From the IMG/VR virus record IMGVR_UViG_2703718843_000010: a stretch of 22,143 nt of DNA; one strand, given 5' to 3'. The stretch is from a virus. Lineage: Duplodnaviria; Heunggongvirae; Uroviricota; Caudoviricetes. How positions within the stretch are numbered: the first letter of the stretch is position 1; each line of letters begins with the position of its first letter. The notes under the pieces were generated by a model that was not told the DNA's origin, ran no database searches, and saw nothing but the letters and a program-made list of their open reading frames with translations. Positions 2,939 to 9,550 of this stretch are shown here, in pieces. The position numbers were made by a program, and so were the translations under genes.

Positions 2939-3151
2939 ATGACCAGACGTGAACAATATAGTTTCATTTTGCATGTTCTTTTACCTGCTATCGAAAATGA
3001 AGGGTTAACCATTAAAACCCGCCGTGATGGTGAGTTAACCCTTTCTGCCAGTGGGTCTGTAGCAACCAATTTTATAAGCAATCTGCGCCAGCACTGCATT
3101 GAAGAATTGCAGCGCCCTTCTATTCCAGCTTCCCATTACGGAGTCCTATAA
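2939..3151 (+). CDS. Hypothetical small protein (70 aa) immediately upstream of dam
   Basis: ATG at 2939 with GGAGG at 8-nt spacing; its stop (3149-3151) is one base before the dam ATG. Confidence 0.5.
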   Translation: MTRREQYSFILHVLLPAIENEGLTIKTRRDGELTLSASGSVATNFISNLRQHCIEELQRPSIPASHYGVL

Positions 3152-3152
3152 A

Positions 3153-4124
3153 ATGATCCGCCCGTTCATCAAATGGGCAGGGGGTAAAACCCGTGTCCTC
3201 CCTGACCTGCTGCCGCATCTTCCTAAAGTCGACTGCCTGATCGAACCATTCGTAGGCGGTGCATCGGTATTTCTGGCGACTGAATACCGCCGCTATGTGC
3301 TGGCTGATATCAACCCAGATCTTATTAACCTGTATCGGGAAGTCACCCGTTACCCGGACTTAGTGATCGATGCGGCCCGCGAACTGTTCAACAGTAAGAA
3401 CAACCCGCAGGGATACAACGAAGTCCGCGCCGCGTTCAATAAGCAGGTGGGTACGGTAAAAAGCGGTGGGTTGCGTTATGGCGCTGAAATGGCGTGCATT
3501 ATGCGCGCTGCTCAATTCCTGTATCTGAATCGCCACGGTTATAACGGCTTATGCCGATACAGCCGGAAGACCGGCTTTAACGTGCCGTTTGGCAAGTATA
3601 AGAGCGTCTACTTTCCTGAAAATGAAATCCGCCTGTTTGCCGAAAAGGCCAACGATACAAAGGCAATATTTCTTTGCGCGCCGTTCCAGCGTTCTCTACA
3701 AGTCGTCACGGGTGGCGATGTTCTTGTTTACTGCGATCCGCCTTACCTGCCTGAAAGCAAAACAGCCGATTTTACCCAATACCACACCGAACCATTCACG
3801 GAAGACAACCACCGCCAGTTAGTCCAGGCACTGCTGGAAGTTAACCGTAAGCATGGCGTGAAGGTCGTCATTTCCAACAGCGACACCGAAGCCACCCGCG
3901 TGATTTATCAGCCCTTCAAGATGCACGAAATCAGCGTGCAACGTTCCGTCAGCACTGACAAAGACAACCGCCAGAAGGCCAAAGAAGTGATCGGCGTGCT
4001 GCCTGTCTGCGACTGCTGCGGGCGTTACGGCGGCGGTTGCCCTGATTGTGGCGCCGTGATGGGTGATGCGACTTACAACGCGATGGTTGCGGCGGGCACG
4101 TTTGACGATCTGGAGGCTTTTTAA
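3153..4124 (+). CDS. dam: DNA adenine methyltransferase, Dam family (D12 class, likely GATC), with a C-terminal cysteine-cluster extension
   Basis: N-terminal FIKWAGGK, SAM-binding EPFVGGASVFL and catalytic DPPY, with overall collinearity to E. coli Dam as remembered. Extra tail VCDCCGRYGGGCPDCG. ATG at 3153 with GGAG upstream. Confidence 0.9.
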   Translation: MIRPFIKWAGGKTRVLPDLLPHLPKVDCLIEPFVGGASVFLATEYRRYVLADINPDLINLYREVTRYPDLVIDAARELFNSKNNPQGYNEVRAAFNKQVGTVKSGGLRYGAEMACIMRAAQFLYLNRHGYNGLCRYSRKTGFNVPFGKYKSVYFPENEIRLFAEKANDTKAIFLCAPFQRSLQVVTGGDVLVYCDPPYLPESKTADFTQYHTEPFTEDNHRQLVQALLEVNRKHGVKVVISNSDTEATRVIYQPFKMHEISVQRSVSTDKDNRQKAKEVIGVLPVCDCCGRYGGGCPDCGAVMGDATYNAMVAAGTFDDLEAF

Positions 4125-4444
4125 TGGCAAAAATCTATATCGCTGGCCCGATGAGCGGTTTGCCTGGATTCAATCGGCAGGCTTTTAACCGTGCAGCCGG
4201 GCACGTAGTGCGACGCGGAAACGTTGCCCTTAATCCGGCGATTTTGCCGGATGGATTAGAGCAGGCGGAATACATGGATATTTGCTTCGCCATGTTGCGT
4301 TGTGCTGACGGGATCTTCTTGCTGGATGGCTGGCAGCAGTCTGCCGGAGCTAAGGCAGAGCACGCGCTTGCTGAAAAGCTGGGTTTAGAAATTCAGTACC
4401 AAGTAATCGATCGGTGTAGCCGAAAGGCGGAGGGGCAGCAGTGA
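4124..4444 (+). CDS. DUF4406-like protein (nucleoside 2-deoxyribosyltransferase-like fold)
   Basis: 106 aa beginning MAKIYIAGPMSG...NPAILP, the hallmark N-terminus of the DUF4406 family. ATG overlaps the dam stop (TAATG). Confidence 0.75.
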   Translation: MAKIYIAGPMSGLPGFNRQAFNRAAGHVVRRGNVALNPAILPDGLEQAEYMDICFAMLRCADGIFLLDGWQQSAGAKAEHALAEKLGLEIQYQVIDRCSRKAEGQQ

Positions 4445-5355
4445 CCGCCTACTACAACGAAATCGACCCCTTCGCCGCGCAATACCTGCGCAACCTCATT
4501 GATGCCGGGCTTATCGCTTCCGGTGTTGTCGATACTCGTTCCGTTGAGGATGTAACCCCAAATGACCTTAAAGGATTCTCACAAGTCCACCTGTTTGCAG
4601 GTTTTGGAGGCTGGCCCCGTGCTTTGCGCGTCGCAGGATGGCCGGACGACCGCCCAGTATGGACAGCAAGTTGCCCATGCCAACCTTTCAGCCAGGCAGG
4701 CGAAGGAAAACAATTTGATGATGAGCGGCACCTATGGCCCGCCGTTCATTGGCTTGCAGGCCAGCAACGCCCTGTCGTTATATTTGGCGAACAGTCTTCA
4801 AGCAAAGATGCAGAAGTCTGGATCGACCTTGTACAAACTGACATGGAAAGTTTGGGCTATGCCTTCGGGGCGTCGGCGTTTCCGTCTGCGGGCGTCGGTG
4901 CGCCGCACATCCGGGAGCGTACTTACTGGCTGGCCGACTCCAACCGCGAGCAATACGAAGAACGCTTATCAGGATGCCGAGAAGGTGATCGCCAGGAAGC
5001 TGGCTGGTCGGCAGTCGAACTTACAGGGCTTTGCTTGTCTTGCGGGTTGGCCCACCCCTGCGGCGAGGGATGGAAAGGGCGGGTATCAGGGAGGAAGGAT
5101 GCGGCACGGGAAGCTGTCAACGGATACGCTGGATGTGACAGCGCAGATAGCAGGCCCGGCCCGGTTAACGGATTCTGGGGATCTGCTGACTGGCTCCTTT
5201 GCAGAGATGGAAAGTGGAGGCCAGTTAAACCCGGCCTTAAGCCTCTGGTTGATGGGGTTCCCTCCAGAGTGGGAAAACTACGCGCCAGCGGAAACGCCGT
5301 AAATATCTATGCAGCCGCAACTTTCTTAAAAGCCTACATGGAGATCGCGCAATGA
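4441..5355 (+). CDS. DNA cytosine-5 methyltransferase (phage-type); a second long overlapping frame is described in findings
   Basis: GTG start overlapping the upstream stop (GTGA). Motif I FAGFGG, motif IV PCQPFSQAG, GEQ-type motif VI region, motif VIII GAPHIRERTYWLA, motif X GNAVN...FLKAY. Stop overlaps the gene A ATG. Confidence 0.8.
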   Translation: MTAYYNEIDPFAAQYLRNLIDAGLIASGVVDTRSVEDVTPNDLKGFSQVHLFAGFGGWPRALRVAGWPDDRPVWTASCPCQPFSQAGEGKQFDDERHLWPAVHWLAGQQRPVVIFGEQSSSKDAEVWIDLVQTDMESLGYAFGASAFPSAGVGAPHIRERTYWLADSNREQYEERLSGCREGDRQEAGWSAVELTGLCLSCGLAHPCGEGWKGRVSGRKDAAREAVNGYAGCDSADSRPGPVNGFWGSADWLLCRDGKWRPVKPGLKPLVDGVPSRVGKLRASGNAVNIYAAATFLKAYMEIAQ

Positions 5356-7757
5356 CCACGGCAACCCGTGGCCGTCGCGCCCCTTCTCCACCTCCACCGT
5401 ATCCGGGTAGCACTGACAATGCTATCCCTTACGCTTATGGCGGGAACAAACCATACCAGCCTATTGGCGTTGATGTAGCGCCGGGGCTGGATGGTTTCGA
5501 CTATCTCACGCCGGACGGCACGCGTAAGCATATTGCGTTCAGTGAACTGGTAGCGGAAGACGAAAAGCCGGAGCGCAGCAAGCTGCTGCGTCGCCGCCTG
5601 GCTTCTCTTCCGCAGTATATCCGCCGCCACTTTGCCGCGAAGCTGGATGCACTGGACGCGAAAGACCGCAAAGCGGCAGATCACTGGCTGGTTAATACAT
5701 TTGAGCGCCACGTATTAACGCGTATTGATAGCGTGAACAGTGTTTACCAGCCTGACACTGTGATGCCCGGCATTCTGCTGCCAATCCGCGATCAGCTTTT
5801 CCGTATGCTCTGGGCAGGGAAGAAAGAGTTAAAAAGACTGGCTTATACGCTTGCCGATATCTTTACGAGCGAGTTTATACGCGAGTCCGATCACCAGTTG
5901 GCACGCACCGGAGATCCTGAGTTCGCGGCGCTTTCTGGCTATGGCCGTATTGCGTCGCTGGCGGTGCATCTGAAAACGCCGATCCCTGGCTGGACGGCGT
6001 ATTGCAATGAAGAACTGGAAGCGGAGGACGCGTTACGCGCGGTTCTTCGCCTTGAGTCACCGCAGTGGTGGTTAAACCGCCTGCGCCGTATCCATGCCCG
6101 GTGGCGTGAGCATTTGATGATCGCAGCGGGATACGTCCAGAAAAAATCTTCCCCATACAGTAGCGCCCCGTGCCTTACGGAGTGGTTGGCCCAGAAAAAG
6201 GCTAACCGTGAATACCTTAAGGCTATGGAACTGGAAGACCAGGACACGGGCGAACGCATTTCACTGATCGATAAAGTCGCCGGTAGTGTTGCCAATCCGG
6301 CCAACCGTCGCCGCGAACTCATGACGAGAATGCGCGGATTTGAAGATCTGGCGAAGCTGGAAGGGCTGGCCGGTGACTTCTACACGCTAACAGCACCTTC
6401 CCGTTACCACTCCATGCAGCATAACGGGCGCCGCAATAATAAATACTGTGGCGCGTCGCCGCGCGAGACGCAGCAATATCTTTGCAAAGTCTGGGCGAGA
6501 ACCCGCGCAGCGTGGAAGAGAAAAGGGATCCGCGTCTTTGGTTTCCGCGTGGTCGAACCGCACCACGATGCAACGCCACACTGGCATTTACTTCTTTTTA
6601 TGCGCCCGGAATGCGTCGAGCAGGCGCGCGAAATCTTCCGTAAATATGCCCTGAAAGAAGACGGCAACGAACCGGGAGCGCAGGAAAACCGCTTTCAGGT
6701 TGTGCCGATCGACGATGCCCACGGCAGCGCAACCGGCTACATAGCGAAATACATTTCGAAGAATATCGACGGCTTCGCGCTGGATGGTGAGAAGGACGAC
6801 GAAACCGGGGAAGACCTGAAAGAAATGTCACTCCGCGTTAGCGCGTGGGCATCGCGCTGGGCTATTCGTCAGTTTCAGCAGATCGGCGGTGCGCCGGTCA
6901 CGGTATATCGCGAACTTCGCCGCCTGGGCGATCGCGAACTGGTGTTACACCCTGAACTGGAAACCGCCCGGCAGGCCGCTAACGGTGGCGAATGGGATAA
7001 CTACGTATTAGCCCAGGGTGGACCGTTGGTTGAGCGCGATAAGCTGCGCATCCGTCTGAATTATGAAACCACTGAAAACGGCAACGCCTACGGCGATAAC
7101 GTCCAGCGAATCACTGGTATTTACTGCCCGATTACGGGCAATGACTCTTTGATCTTCACCCGCACCACTCAATACAAAATCGTGCCGAAGCGCCAGAGCG
7201 CTGACGGTGTGGCCGTTGACGTTGGTTTTTCAGGCGGCAACGCCGCCCCTCGGAGTTCTGTCAATAACTGTACGCGGGATCCCGCGGCAGGTGCTGACGG
7301 TGTAGAACATGCCGCCAGCGAAGCTACAGGGCAGTCAGAAATGACTGAGCCAGCTGAGGGCGTGACGGTGAATTTTGATGCGCTTTCACGGCAGGAAAAG
7401 CGAGAATTGGCGCAGCGGCTCAGTGCCGATGTGCGAAGTAAGCGTAAAAAACGGCCACCGGATAGGGAAGACAGGGCCGGGCTGTCCGTGAAAGAGCAGC
7501 AGATCAGTGAACTGCTGGCGCTGCGTGGGATTGATGCCAGCGCCGGAATGGTCAGATCGATGATGGCCGGTGCGTCAGTGGCGTGCGGCGATCTTGTTAT
7601 GACCGTGCAGGACGGGCGGCTGGTGTCGCGCAATCGCGCCGCGTCGGGGATAGGTAAATTAGCAACTGAAAAAATGGCAGTTAAGAAAAAATCTGATGAA
7701 CTTCTCAATCGCTGGAAAGTGGCTGTAAAAATTAACAGGGGTAAGTTGACAAATTGA
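5352..7757 (+). CDS. A: Replication initiation protein A (rolling-circle HUH endonuclease), P2 gpA-like
   Basis: 801 aa with HUH-type motif EPHHDATPHWHLLLF and active-site tyrosine motif GYIAKYISKNIDG; collinear with remembered P2 A. Confidence 0.95.
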   Translation: MTTATRGRRAPSPPPPYPGSTDNAIPYAYGGNKPYQPIGVDVAPGLDGFDYLTPDGTRKHIAFSELVAEDEKPERSKLLRRRLASLPQYIRRHFAAKLDALDAKDRKAADHWLVNTFERHVLTRIDSVNSVYQPDTVMPGILLPIRDQLFRMLWAGKKELKRLAYTLADIFTSEFIRESDHQLARTGDPEFAALSGYGRIASLAVHLKTPIPGWTAYCNEELEAEDALRAVLRLESPQWWLNRLRRIHARWREHLMIAAGYVQKKSSPYSSAPCLTEWLAQKKANREYLKAMELEDQDTGERISLIDKVAGSVANPANRRRELMTRMRGFEDLAKLEGLAGDFYTLTAPSRYHSMQHNGRRNNKYCGASPRETQQYLCKVWARTRAAWKRKGIRVFGFRVVEPHHDATPHWHLLLFMRPECVEQAREIFRKYALKEDGNEPGAQENRFQVVPIDDAHGSATGYIAKYISKNIDGFALDGEKDDETGEDLKEMSLRVSAWASRWAIRQFQQIGGAPVTVYRELRRLGDRELVLHPELETARQAANGGEWDNYVLAQGGPLVERDKLRIRLNYETTENGNAYGDNVQRITGIYCPITGNDSLIFTRTTQYKIVPKRQSADGVAVDVGFSGGNAAPRSSVNNCTRDPAAGADGVEHAASEATGQSEMTEPAEGVTVNFDALSRQEKRELAQRLSADVRSKRKKRPPDREDRAGLSVKEQQISELLALRGIDASAGMVRSMMAGASVACGDLVMTVQDGRLVSRNRAASGIGKLATEKMAVKKKSDELLNRWKVAVKINRGKLTN
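7233..7287. other. Candidate replication origin (nick-site region) inside gene A
   Basis: Hairpin GGCGG-CAACG-CCGCC, then CCTCGGAGTTCTGTCAATAACTG, then perfect palindrome CGCGGGATCCCGCG. Encodes the AAPRSSVNNC linker that I remember as the ori-containing part of P2 A. Confidence 0.35.
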
Positions 7758-7774: not shown

Positions 7775-7820
7775 TCTGGTTGACAAAGTTTGATATTTGC
7801 ACTCATGGAGATTTGGATTG

Positions 7821-8414
7821 ATGTCTAAGCAGCCTTTACCTTGGGACTTTCACCCACAATTAACTGAAGAGCGTTTAACAATTATTGCTAAAGAATTGTT
7901 AAGGGTCTTAAATGACACATATGCTCAACTTTCGACCACCTTGGATAACAACTATACACGTTCTACTTGTACTTTTGGTCGTCAATGGCAGTTACTTATT
8001 GATTTATGTTTGAGTGGACAGTACGACTGGCTTCATCTCACCAACGCTGGTTTAGACATCACTTTTACGATCGATACAATTCCTGTTCGTTTCTTCACTG
8101 ATGATCCGGCCAATCCTAAAAAGGATGGTTTTTATCGTCGAAATCCTGCTGATCAGCTTTTTGCTCCTGAGGTGGACATTCCCGTTTTACATCGCTTTGT
8201 TGTTGAGAAACCCGAATTTGAGGGTGAAGGCGCTAAAGTTCATTTCATTGGTTATAACGCTTTGGACGAAGAAGTATCTAAGTGGACGTACAACGATGAA
8301 CCAACAACAGCATTGTTGCACTCTACGGATGATACACCGCCAGAGTCTGTTAGAATTGAACTTGATGACATTCGCCCTTCTCGTCCCGAAAAGGAAGAAA
8401 AAGAGAGCGATTGA
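7821..8414 (+). CDS. Hypothetical protein (197 aa), first gene of the hotspot cassette; candidate effector or toxin
   Basis: ATG at 7821 with GGAG upstream. No motif I recognise; acidic, low-complexity C-terminal tail (PSRPEKEEKESD). AT-richer than the flanking phage genes. Confidence 0.6.
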   Translation: MSKQPLPWDFHPQLTEERLTIIAKELLRVLNDTYAQLSTTLDNNYTRSTCTFGRQWQLLIDLCLSGQYDWLHLTNAGLDITFTIDTIPVRFFTDDPANPKKDGFYRRNPADQLFAPEVDIPVLHRFVVEKPEFEGEGAKVHFIGYNALDEEVSKWTYNDEPTTALLHSTDDTPPESVRIELDDIRPSRPEKEEKESD

Positions 8415-8437: not shown

Positions 8438-9550
8438 GTGTTTAACGGTTCTAATTTAAGATTGGCTCGTCTGTATCACGAGCTATCACTGGAGCAAGTA
8501 GCTGAGCGGGTCGATAAGACCCGCCAGTATATTCAGCGGCTGGAATCCGGCACGGCTGTTCCAACACCCGAGCTTGCGAATAAATTAGCTGCCGTCTTGC
8601 TGGTGATGCCTCATTTTTTTGAAGAGCAATGGCAGTCTCCTGTAAATGAAGAGATCGTTCACTTCCGCAAGCGTAGTTCTACGAGAGTCGCCACAAAAAT
8701 GGCGACTCTCGCCAAAGCTGAGCTGTATCGACGACTTATTGAAATTTTTGAAGAGTATCTGGAGTTACCGCAAGTAAGATTTCCTGAACTGAAGGTGGAT
8801 ACTCAAGAGGATATCGAAAAAGCAGCGGAGAAGTGCCGGACTGATTGGGGGCTAGGTTTTGGGCCGATCGATAACATGACTCGTCTTGCTGAAAAGCTGG
8901 GAGCGTTTGTCACTTCTTTTGATTCTGTTTCTGACGATGTTGATGCTCTTTCTGTTCCTTTGAGCCGCCCATTTATCGTAAGGAATACAGCTAAAAAGTC
9001 ACCCTGCCGTCAGCGGTTTGATATCGCTCACGAGGTTGCACATTTAATTTTACATGAGGGTGTCTCTACTGGAGACAGGGCTACTGAGTCGCAGGCTAAC
9101 CGCTTCGCGTCTGCATTGCTTTTGCCAAGAACAGCTATGGCGAAATATTTTCCACGTCCGATTGGTGGTCGAATCGACTGGCAAGGTCTTAGCCAGTTTA
9201 AATTAACGTGGAAAGTGAGTAAGGCCGCGATCATTTATAGAGCACATCAACTTGGGCTTTTAACTGACGCTCAATACAAAACCGCCTTTTTTGGTCTCAA
9301 GCGAAAGGGGGAGGCTATTGATGAGAAAGAAGATTATTTGATCCCTTGTGAGAAGCCAGAACTATTCAGTAAAGCAATGAAATGCCTGTTAAATGATTTG
9401 TCCGTGGATATTGAAACATTAGCCCAGCGTTTGAGCATAACCCCTACGATGCTCGCAGAACTTGCTAATGATGACACTTTGGTTTCTGCGTCATGTGTGA
9501 ACTCTGAGAATGTAATTTCAATGTTTGCGTATCGGATGAAAACTGCTTAA
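8438..9550 (+). CDS. XRE-family HTH fused to ImmA/IrrE-type (M78, COG2856) zinc metallopeptidase, with an extra C-terminal region
   Basis: GTG start with AAGGTG at 5-nt spacing. N-terminal HTH LRLARLYHELSLEQVAERVDKTRQYIQRLESG; HExxH motif HEVAH encoded at 9029-9043 within the ImmA-like core; about 150 further residues after the core. Confidence 0.85.
   Translation: MFNGSNLRLARLYHELSLEQVAERVDKTRQYIQRLESGTAVPTPELANKLAAVLLVMPHFFEEQWQSPVNEEIVHFRKRSSTRVATKMATLAKAELYRRLIEIFEEYLELPQVRFPELKVDTQEDIEKAAEKCRTDWGLGFGPIDNMTRLAEKLGAFVTSFDSVSDDVDALSVPLSRPFIVRNTAKKSPCRQRFDIAHEVAHLILHEGVSTGDRATESQANRFASALLLPRTAMAKYFPRPIGGRIDWQGLSQFKLTWKVSKAAIIYRAHQLGLLTDAQYKTAFFGLKRKGEAIDEKEDYLIPCEKPELFSKAMKCLLNDLSVDIETLAQRLSITPTMLAELANDDTLVSASCVNSENVISMFAYRMKTA

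Follow-up and report, generated by a model that had tools for sequence, protein, structure and literature searches.

Does the cytosine-5 (C5) methyltransferase gene of a P2-like prophage encode one polypeptide or two? The window analyzed here, a stretch of 22,143 nucleotides (nt) from a member of the Caudoviricetes (IMG/VR record IMGVR_UViG_2703718843_000010), contains an open reading frame (ORF) for a C5 methyltransferase-like protein of 304 amino acids (aa) that starts with GTG (frame 1, 4441..5355). A second ORF of 246 aa, starting with ATG, lies wholly within it in the +1 frame (frame 2, 4562..5302). Both are on the plus strand, and their products are referred to as alpha and beta, respectively. 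RefSeq annotates alpha only. An initial annotation, made from the letters of the sequence, had given the two ORFs as they stand here and had considered reading them as a genuine overlapping gene, as a methyltransferase that is frameshifted or recoded, or as a coincidence favored by GC-rich sequence. Our results point to a genuine overlapping gene, since frame 2 is conserved, is under purifying selection, and has a putative ribosome-binding site and ATG of its own. We estimate a probability of about 75% that the locus specifies a two-chain DNA cytosine-5 methyltransferase, similar to M.EcoHK31I, from two nested genes on one mRNA.

The conservation of the nesting was studied in 80 related IMG/VR loci (alpha identity, 47-99%) and annotated phages, 88 loci in total. 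The +1 frame was open for 204-337 codons in every one of them, and the +2 frame for at most 99 codons. The initial annotation had named frequent interruption of frame 2 among homologues as the mark of a chance open frame, and the opposite was found, with 0 stops in 88/88 loci. Some properties of the gene do favor an open frame arising from GC richness and frame-1 constraints. Its GC content is 57%, part of the frame-2 similarity before position 4800 is a by-product of the alpha motifs (PCQPFS reads as HANLSA), and synonymous shuffles of the alpha codons leave frame 2 fairly stop-poor, with 5-10 stops. However, the nesting is kept in Paenibacillus, Bacillus, Lactobacillus and Bacteroides phages with 43-45% GC, in which the +1 ORF has 161-379 codons, so GC content cannot explain the open +1 frame. 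The start signals of beta are also conserved, and in the middle of the gene the constrained frame is frame 2 while frame 1 is neutral. The open length of frame 2 observed in the window was reached in 1/2000 of the shuffles. In Salmonella phage SI7, which aligns without gaps at 76.5% DNA identity, frame 2 is open, and mid-gene the frame-2 peptide is, by eye, around 90% identical to that of the window versus around 50% for frame 1.

A scan of bacterial genomes, with one genome per species, yielded 37 loci from Enterobacterales, Desulfovibrio, Bdellovibrionales, alpha- and betaproteobacteria and Phycisphaeraceae. The nested pair was intact in 34 of these. The exceptions, all with the lesion in the spacer/target-recognition segment, were Klebsiella michiganensis DSM 25444 and Brenneria alni, each with a 1-nt indel by which the frames are swapped, and Consotaella salsifontis, whose alpha spacer has one in-frame stop. 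These three lesions could be sequencing errors, decay or functional variants. The nesting also occurs in a cyanophage, an Acidobacteria phage and Rhodobacter phages, and beta was not found without alpha in any of the approximately 140 loci examined. The copies in the window, Escherichia coli 81009 and Kosakonia are 98-99% identical and intact. A chance open frame, or a gene that is a decayed or mis-sequenced pseudogene, is thus extremely improbable as an explanation of frame 2. Pseudogene formation or sequencing error as such was ruled out, as both frames are open and constrained across phyla and lesions occur in 3/37 genome loci.

Two phage loci depart from the usual arrangement. In Edwardsiella phage eiAU (locus L005, 1115-2536), the beta frame has no stop after motif IX and runs in frame into the N6-adenine methyltransferase gene downstream, with 474 codons open. 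Dunaliella viridis virus SI2 (locus L089, 1341-1814) holds an internally deleted remnant in which alpha is reduced to its first approximately 25 residues and the C-terminal element; its beta frame is still open for 105 codons, with one WPTP repeat and motif IX.

The 5' end of beta carries signals expected of a start site. In the window, a frame-2 stop (TAA, 4553-4555) lies just upstream of the beta ATG (4562-4564), which is preceded by GAGGA (4546-4550) at a distance of 11 nt. An ATG was present at the beta 5' edge in 50/50 nonredundant relatives. In 31 of these it is located at the equivalent of position 4550, in the form GGAG-N8-ATG, and in the other 19, including the window, at 4562, in the form GAGGA-N11-ATG. 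The GGAG arises from the alpha Arg-Ser codons AGG/CGG and AGY, and AGG was used at that Arg column in 19 of the 50 sequences, compared with 4 times elsewhere in the first 110 alpha codons. Similar pairs of a Shine-Dalgarno-like sequence and ATG precede beta in phages K1ind2, Cy-LDV1, Tunturi_1, Diva and GordTnk2. Judged from these patterns, beta has a conserved candidate Shine-Dalgarno sequence and ATG of its own and would be translated from them.

To which of the two frames selection applies was determined along the gene in a frame-1 codon alignment of 50 sequences with less than 92% nucleotide identity. Differences were classed by their effect in both frames in OLGenie-style counts, with bootstrap over codons, and the result agreed with the profile of diversity by codon position. 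Up to approximately position 4780, alpha position 3 was the most variable, as in ordinary single coding. At 4810-4930 and 5170-5260, all codon positions showed similarly low diversity. Between these two segments, at 4930-5150, the most variable position was alpha position 1, which is beta position 3. Past the beta stop, the diversity returned to the alpha-only pattern.

The omega values followed the same course. Alpha was constrained over 4441-4800. In the upstream control (4450-4561), omega was 0.06 for alpha and 0.92 (0.64-1.30; not significant) for the beta frame. In the first segment of beta (R1, 4562-4800), alpha was strongly constrained (0.14) and the beta leader weakly (0.69; 0.52-0.90). 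The second segment (R2, 4801-4930), which contains alpha motifs VI-VIII, was dual coding, with omega values of 0.44 for alpha and 0.67 (0.46-0.97) for beta. Divergence at sites synonymous in alpha and nonsynonymous in beta fell to 0.56 in R2, compared with 2.5-2.6 outside beta. In the third segment (R3, 4931-5150), which contains the beta recognition repeats, beta was constrained (0.43; 0.35-0.52) and alpha was a neutral spacer (0.93; 0.80-1.08). Both frames were again constrained in the fourth segment (R4, 5151-5299; 0.46 for alpha and 0.48 for beta). In the downstream control (R5, 5303-5352), omega was 0.21 for alpha and 0.76, not significant, for the beta frame. The initial annotation had proposed asking which frame is conserved at synonymous sites, and by this measure frame 2 is under purifying selection. 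The segment omegas and the position diversity together indicate that around 280 nt are doubly constrained and around 220 nt are coded for beta only.

Stops were also missing where the protein is weakly constrained or unconstrained. Alpha had 0 stops in R3 in 43 sequences, although 2.16 per sequence were expected when beta codons were shuffled synonymously, and beta had 0 stops in R1 in 49 sequences, compared with 1.19 expected per sequence. Both frames are evidently read through.

Frame 1 encodes the catalytic part of the enzyme. Motifs I (FAGFGG, 4594-4611), IV (PCQPFS, 4675-4692), VIII (PHIRERTYW, 4903-4929) and X (GNAV, 5290-5301) were all located in the frame to which the initial annotation had assigned them, and motif VI (GEQ, 4786-4794) was placed in addition. 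The C-terminal helix that contains motif X extends to 5352, and alpha alone is coded after the beta stop at 5300-5302. Alpha matched PF00145 with 42.4 bits (cutoff, 22; E = 7.9e-11) over residues 74-172 only, and it aligned to M.HhaI residues 71-172 with an E value of 1e-8, so the similarity to both is confined to the part from motif IV to motif VIII. The comparison of both translations with PF00145 had been suggested in the initial annotation; frame 2 gave no match to this profile. In an AlphaFold2 model of alpha built with 43 homologues, residues 1-168 had predicted local distance difference test (pLDDT) values of 80-93 and the C-terminal helix with GNAV values of 62-86. Residues 170-283 were modeled with very low confidence (pLDDT, 22-42). 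The best Foldseek matches of the model were the C5 methyltransferases M.HhaI, M.HaeIII, DNMT2 and DNMT1, over around 170 columns. The model and its matches predict that alpha consists of the large domain and motif X, without a structured small domain.

Within 4450-4611 of alpha, an NE-x-D element that resembles motifs II/III (YYNEID...VEDV) precedes motif I, and the gap from motif I to PCQ is around 20 residues. The N terminus of alpha looks permuted in this respect, unlike that of Firmicute, Bacteroides and actinophage relatives, in which motif I comes first.

The part missing from alpha appears to be encoded in frame 2. Beta contains GWPTPTASN (4928-4954), AGWPTPAARDGKGG (5042-5083) in the region of the target-recognition repeats, and a motif IX element, LNPALSLWLMGFPPEW (5225-5272). 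All of these peptides had been reported in the initial annotation, in which the start of the last was placed 3 nt off, at 5228. It had also noted correctly that the same nucleotides are read twice around motif VIII, as YWLA in frame 1 (4924-4935) and as GWPTPT in frame 2 (4928-4945). In the dual-coding segments, beta reads GSTLYKLTWK..RLRASVRRTS in R2 and RLT.SG..LTG and motif IX in R4. The C-terminal element L-N-P-x5-L-M-G-F-P-P-E-W has the spacing of motif IX, which we take to be similar to that of RKLHPRECARVMGYP in M.HhaI.

Similarity searches connected beta to the small domain of a single-chain enzyme. The beta of the window matched that of a Bacteroides phage (E = 6e-8), which in turn matched residues 210-329 of gp69 of Mycobacterium phage Starcevich (BLASTP E = 5e-4, 127 residues). 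This gp69 segment contains LLPTPSA.., LLSTPQARDYKG and LHPAFPEWMMGWPAGW and stands directly before the GNGV of motif X. In hhalign, motif IX of the beta profile aligned with the in-frame motif IX of gp69 (E = 1.5e-3). Beta also matched PHROG 31772 (5e-38) and PHROG 1008 (1.4e-27), both labeled DNA methyltransferase. The alignments to gp69 are short and lend moderate support to the presence of motif IX in beta. The similarity to the segment before motif X suggests that beta most likely corresponds to the variable target-recognition region together with motif IX, as the initial annotation had supposed from the WPTP-type peptides. A similarity of the actinophage +1 frame to beta in R2 is a by-product of conserved alpha motifs and was not counted as evidence.

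The order of elements along the DNA is the same in Starcevich gp69, a single-chain member of the PCQPFS..DERHLWP clade, and in the window: PCQPFSxAGxxxGxxDERHxWP, GAPHxRxR, LPTP/WPTP repeats, motif IX (L-x-P-x-F-x-E-W-M-M-G-x-P-x-G-W) and motif X. In Starcevich all of them are in one frame, whereas in the window the target-recognition domain (TRD) and motif IX are in the +1 frame and frame 1 reads a spacer there. A third layout was found in Gordonia phage GordTnk2, whose catalytic ORF ends after motif VIII and whose +1 ORF has LLPTP, motif IX and motif X. Most relatives share the layout of the window, in which motif X is in frame 1 and the +1 frame holds the TRD and motif IX.

These layouts raise the question of whether the two frames are joined by programmed +1 frameshifting, perhaps with a return shift, so that the alpha catalytic and beta recognition domains are fused and frame 2 is not an independent gene. 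A fusion at around 4925-4930 would give motif VIII, WPTP and motif IX in the order seen in Starcevich gp69, the natural 1-nt indel of K. michiganensis yields just such a fusion ORF, and the catalytic ORF of GordTnk2 ends where its +1 ORF carries on. However, beta is selected and kept open for around 370 nt upstream of any useful junction (R1-R2), and its 5' end has the conserved Shine-Dalgarno-like sequence and ATG. R2 also needs alpha motifs VI-VIII, so two polypeptides are read there. Ribosomes must also continue in frame 1, given that alpha has no stops in R3 and is under constraint in R4-R5. No frame-1 stop, slippery run or recognizable or conserved shift site was detected at 4900-4960, and a fusion that ends at the beta stop lacks motif X, as does the K. 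michiganensis fusion. In M.EcoHK31I, beta is made by independent initiation. The locus also differs from a prfB-like programmed +1 frameshift in that selection acts on the two frames upstream as well as downstream of the junction. We consider frameshifting improbable as the explanation of frame 2, though possible for a minor product. With the two frames both constrained in R2 and R4, a double frameshift that restores a canonical single chain was rejected as the only explanation. The frameshifted or recoded methyltransferase of the initial annotation is not supported; a decayed or mis-sequenced frameshifted gene is ruled out by both frames being open and constrained across phyla, and programmed recoding is unneeded and fits the selection pattern poorly.

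A different arrangement of function would be that both frames are translated and beta is not a methyltransferase subunit. Alpha would then be complete by itself through a minimal recognition domain in R4, and beta would act in regulation, DNA binding or anti-defense. The R4 part of alpha, which reads VNGFWGSADWLLCRDGKWRP at 5164-5223 and PLVDGVP at 5242-5262, is indeed constrained in frame 1 and has a motif IX-like spacing (R-x-V-x-P..PLVDGVP). No profile library identifies beta as part of a methyltransferase, and AlphaFold2 does not fold it. Against this, the motif IX found in beta (L-x-P-x5-L-M-G-F-P-x-x-W) is the better of the two, the beta repeats can be aligned with a monomeric enzyme's TRD, and alpha is neutral and disordered between motif VIII and R4, so that it lacks a normal recognition domain. 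The constant company of alpha in the approximately 140 loci and the requirement of the M.EcoHK31I beta for methylation also disagree with a separate role. Such a role for beta is unlikely, though less so than frameshifting.

A two-chain enzyme from nested genes has precedents. C5 methyltransferases consist of two domains, of which the large one holds most conserved motifs and the small one, comprising the variable region and motif IX, makes all specific DNA contacts; natural two-chain C5 enzymes, M.AquI and M.EcoHK31I, are known (PMC3404938). [quoted passage not shown] Methylation was abolished when the start codons of beta were silently removed and was restored by beta supplied in trans, and N-terminal truncation of beta progressively weakened its binding to alpha (PMC2836561).

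The window shares with M.EcoHK31I a beta that is wholly nested in alpha on the same strand in another frame, an alpha of around 300 aa, motif X on alpha and motif IX on beta. The M.EcoHK31I beta is made from its own start codons, and the window beta has its conserved Shine-Dalgarno-like sequence and ATG. The N terminus of the M.EcoHK31I beta serves association rather than catalysis, which fits the weakly constrained but always open leader of the window beta. There are also differences. M.EcoHK31I is part of a restriction-modification pair, whereas the P2-like prophage of the window carries its gene as an orphan. In addition, the descriptions cited above place the predicted TRD of M.EcoHK31I in alpha and only motif IX in beta, whereas in the window the recognition-like repeats are in beta and the corresponding alpha segment is neutral. 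The beta of M.EcoHK31I reportedly has 176 aa, next to a chain of 309 aa, compared with 246 aa for the window beta. By analogy, the window locus probably works like M.EcoHK31I and belongs with it. The principle of nesting has been known since 1995 for one enzyme, and the window is a further, prophage-borne case.

M.AquI, also a C5 methyltransferase, likewise occurs naturally as two chains that divide within the variable region, with motifs I-VIII on alpha and the distal TRD and motifs IX-X on beta (PMC3404938). Unlike in the window, its beta is not nested and motif X is on beta, whereas motif X of the window stays on alpha. The closest analogue of M.AquI among the relatives is therefore GordTnk2 and not the window gene. 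Compared with the overprinted genes of small viruses, the locus has a similarly long same-strand overlap (741 nt) with dually constrained segments. Unlike in those genes, neither frame looks de novo, the nested frame apparently being ancestral for its segment, and the host genome is that of a large double-stranded DNA (dsDNA) prophage without obvious size pressure. In the searchable literature on Mte8, WPTP and overlapping phage methyltransferase genes, there was no description of the family, of the breadth of the nesting or of a neutral alpha spacer opposite the recognition domain.

In the two-chain enzyme favored here, alpha would supply the large domain for S-adenosylmethionine (AdoMet) binding and catalysis (motifs I, IV, VI and VIII) and the motif X helix, joined by a spacer of around 70-115 residues whose sequence is immaterial provided that it stays open. 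Initiated at a Shine-Dalgarno sequence and ATG of its own, beta would supply the small domain, with WPTP-type repeats and motif IX, and its N-terminal leader would probably dock it onto alpha. The two chains would then associate into the active enzyme, and by analogy with M.EcoHK31I both are presumably needed for activity. As an orphan modification enzyme of the P2-like prophage, it may act against restriction by methylating phage or prophage DNA. The simplest origin would be a canonical gene in which two frame-changing indels arose, one on each side of the small-domain segment. Internal initiation would then have rescued the small domain, and an open frame 1 would have been retained because it keeps motif X joined to the large domain, with which it packs.

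Several observations weigh against the two-chain enzyme. Beta had no meaningful match in sequence or profile searches against Pfam, NCBIfam and the PDB, nor against PADLOC, and beta by itself was not folded with confidence by AlphaFold2 (mean pLDDT, 34, with a shallow alignment). The link of beta to a canonical TRD and motif IX consists of short alignments with modest pairwise E values (5e-4 and 1.5e-3). The 11-nt spacing between the Shine-Dalgarno sequence and the ATG in the window is long. The constrained R4 element of alpha (VNGFW..CRDGKWRP..PLVDGVP), with its motif IX-like spacing, means that alpha might work alone. The pairwise selection estimates were saturated at some site classes, and the sequences compared are phylogenetically related. 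The likeness to M.EcoHK31I was drawn from published descriptions of its layout and motifs. Finally, the translation of beta from its own start is inferred from the sequence, and the association of alpha with beta by analogy.

The gene is located between a DUF4406 gene (4124-4444) and the gene for the gpA replication endonuclease (5352-7757). A Dam methylase gene (3099-4124), intact in the window, lies upstream, and an integrase gene (1-981) is on the minus strand. The GTG start of alpha shares GTGA with the stop of the DUF4406 gene (4441-4444), and its stop shares ATGA with the start of gpA (5352-5355). These overlaps at both ends of alpha suggest translational coupling along an operon of Dam, DUF4406, methyltransferase and gpA. 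The portal and terminase genes are farther along than gpA. Between gpA and the portal gene, PADLOC matched RmrT (7797-8414, plus strand; 8.7e-92) and RmrA (8438-9550, plus strand; 2.8e-204; helix-turn-helix and M78 peptidase). The pair looks like two-gene anti-phage defense cargo, which we take to be a Rosmer system, and the interval from gpA to the portal gene is presumably the usual variable cargo position of P2-like prophages.

No gene for a cognate restriction endonuclease adjoins the methyltransferase gene, whose neighbors are Dam, the DUF4406 gene, gpA and RmrT/RmrA, and the locus does not have the composition of a Type II restriction-modification system. The E. coli copies are located in prophage nin or replication regions, and a search for a restriction-modification-linked E. 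coli member that would tie the family to M.EcoHK31I found prophage copies only. In E. coli 81009 (locus L136, 213-1136), whose prophage is 98.4% identical, the Dam gene upstream is annotated as an incomplete pseudogene.

Database records reflect the double reading only in part. The GenBank records of cyanophage Cy-LDV1 and Tunturiibacter phage Tunturi_1 call the beta frame a methyltransferase and omit alpha, and other phage records give beta ad hoc names such as "Mte8-like" and "internal gene." A total of 10,661 clusters (50% identity) match beta, and nearly all close database entries are named hypothetical. In E. coli EC20 (NZ_CP084900.1; locus L137, 789-1958), the Prokaryotic Genome Annotation Pipeline (PGAP) splits an intact alpha into two "incomplete, partial" pseudogenes, even though the open lengths are 389 codons in frame 1 and 343 in beta. 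These pseudogene calls are probably an annotation artifact caused by the unalignable neutral spacer.

To our knowledge, dsDNA phages and bacteria rarely have long nested genes on the same strand in which selection on both frames can be demonstrated, and the present case is clean, very widespread and experimentally tractable. It offers a natural system for studying the sharing of 280 doubly constrained nt by two proteins and illustrates a spacer selected solely for openness. Cloning the annotated ORF alone with recoding that disrupts beta, as in codon optimization, would probably lose activity, which bears on methylome and anti-restriction studies. We lean slightly toward the view that nested alpha and beta genes are the rule throughout a very large clade of C5 methyltransferases from phages and prophages, covering more than 10,000 clusters (50% identity) from phages of Proteobacteria, Firmicutes, Bacteroidota, Cyanobacteria, Acidobacteriota and others. 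The whole TRD, with a variable number of WPTP/LPTP modules and motif IX, would then be encoded in the +1 frame, and the annotated protein would contain a neutrally drifting spacer in its place. If so, single-chain annotations of these enzymes, as well as predictions of their structure and specificity, would be systematically wrong, and specificity would evolve as modules are gained and lost in a frame that is absent from the databases.

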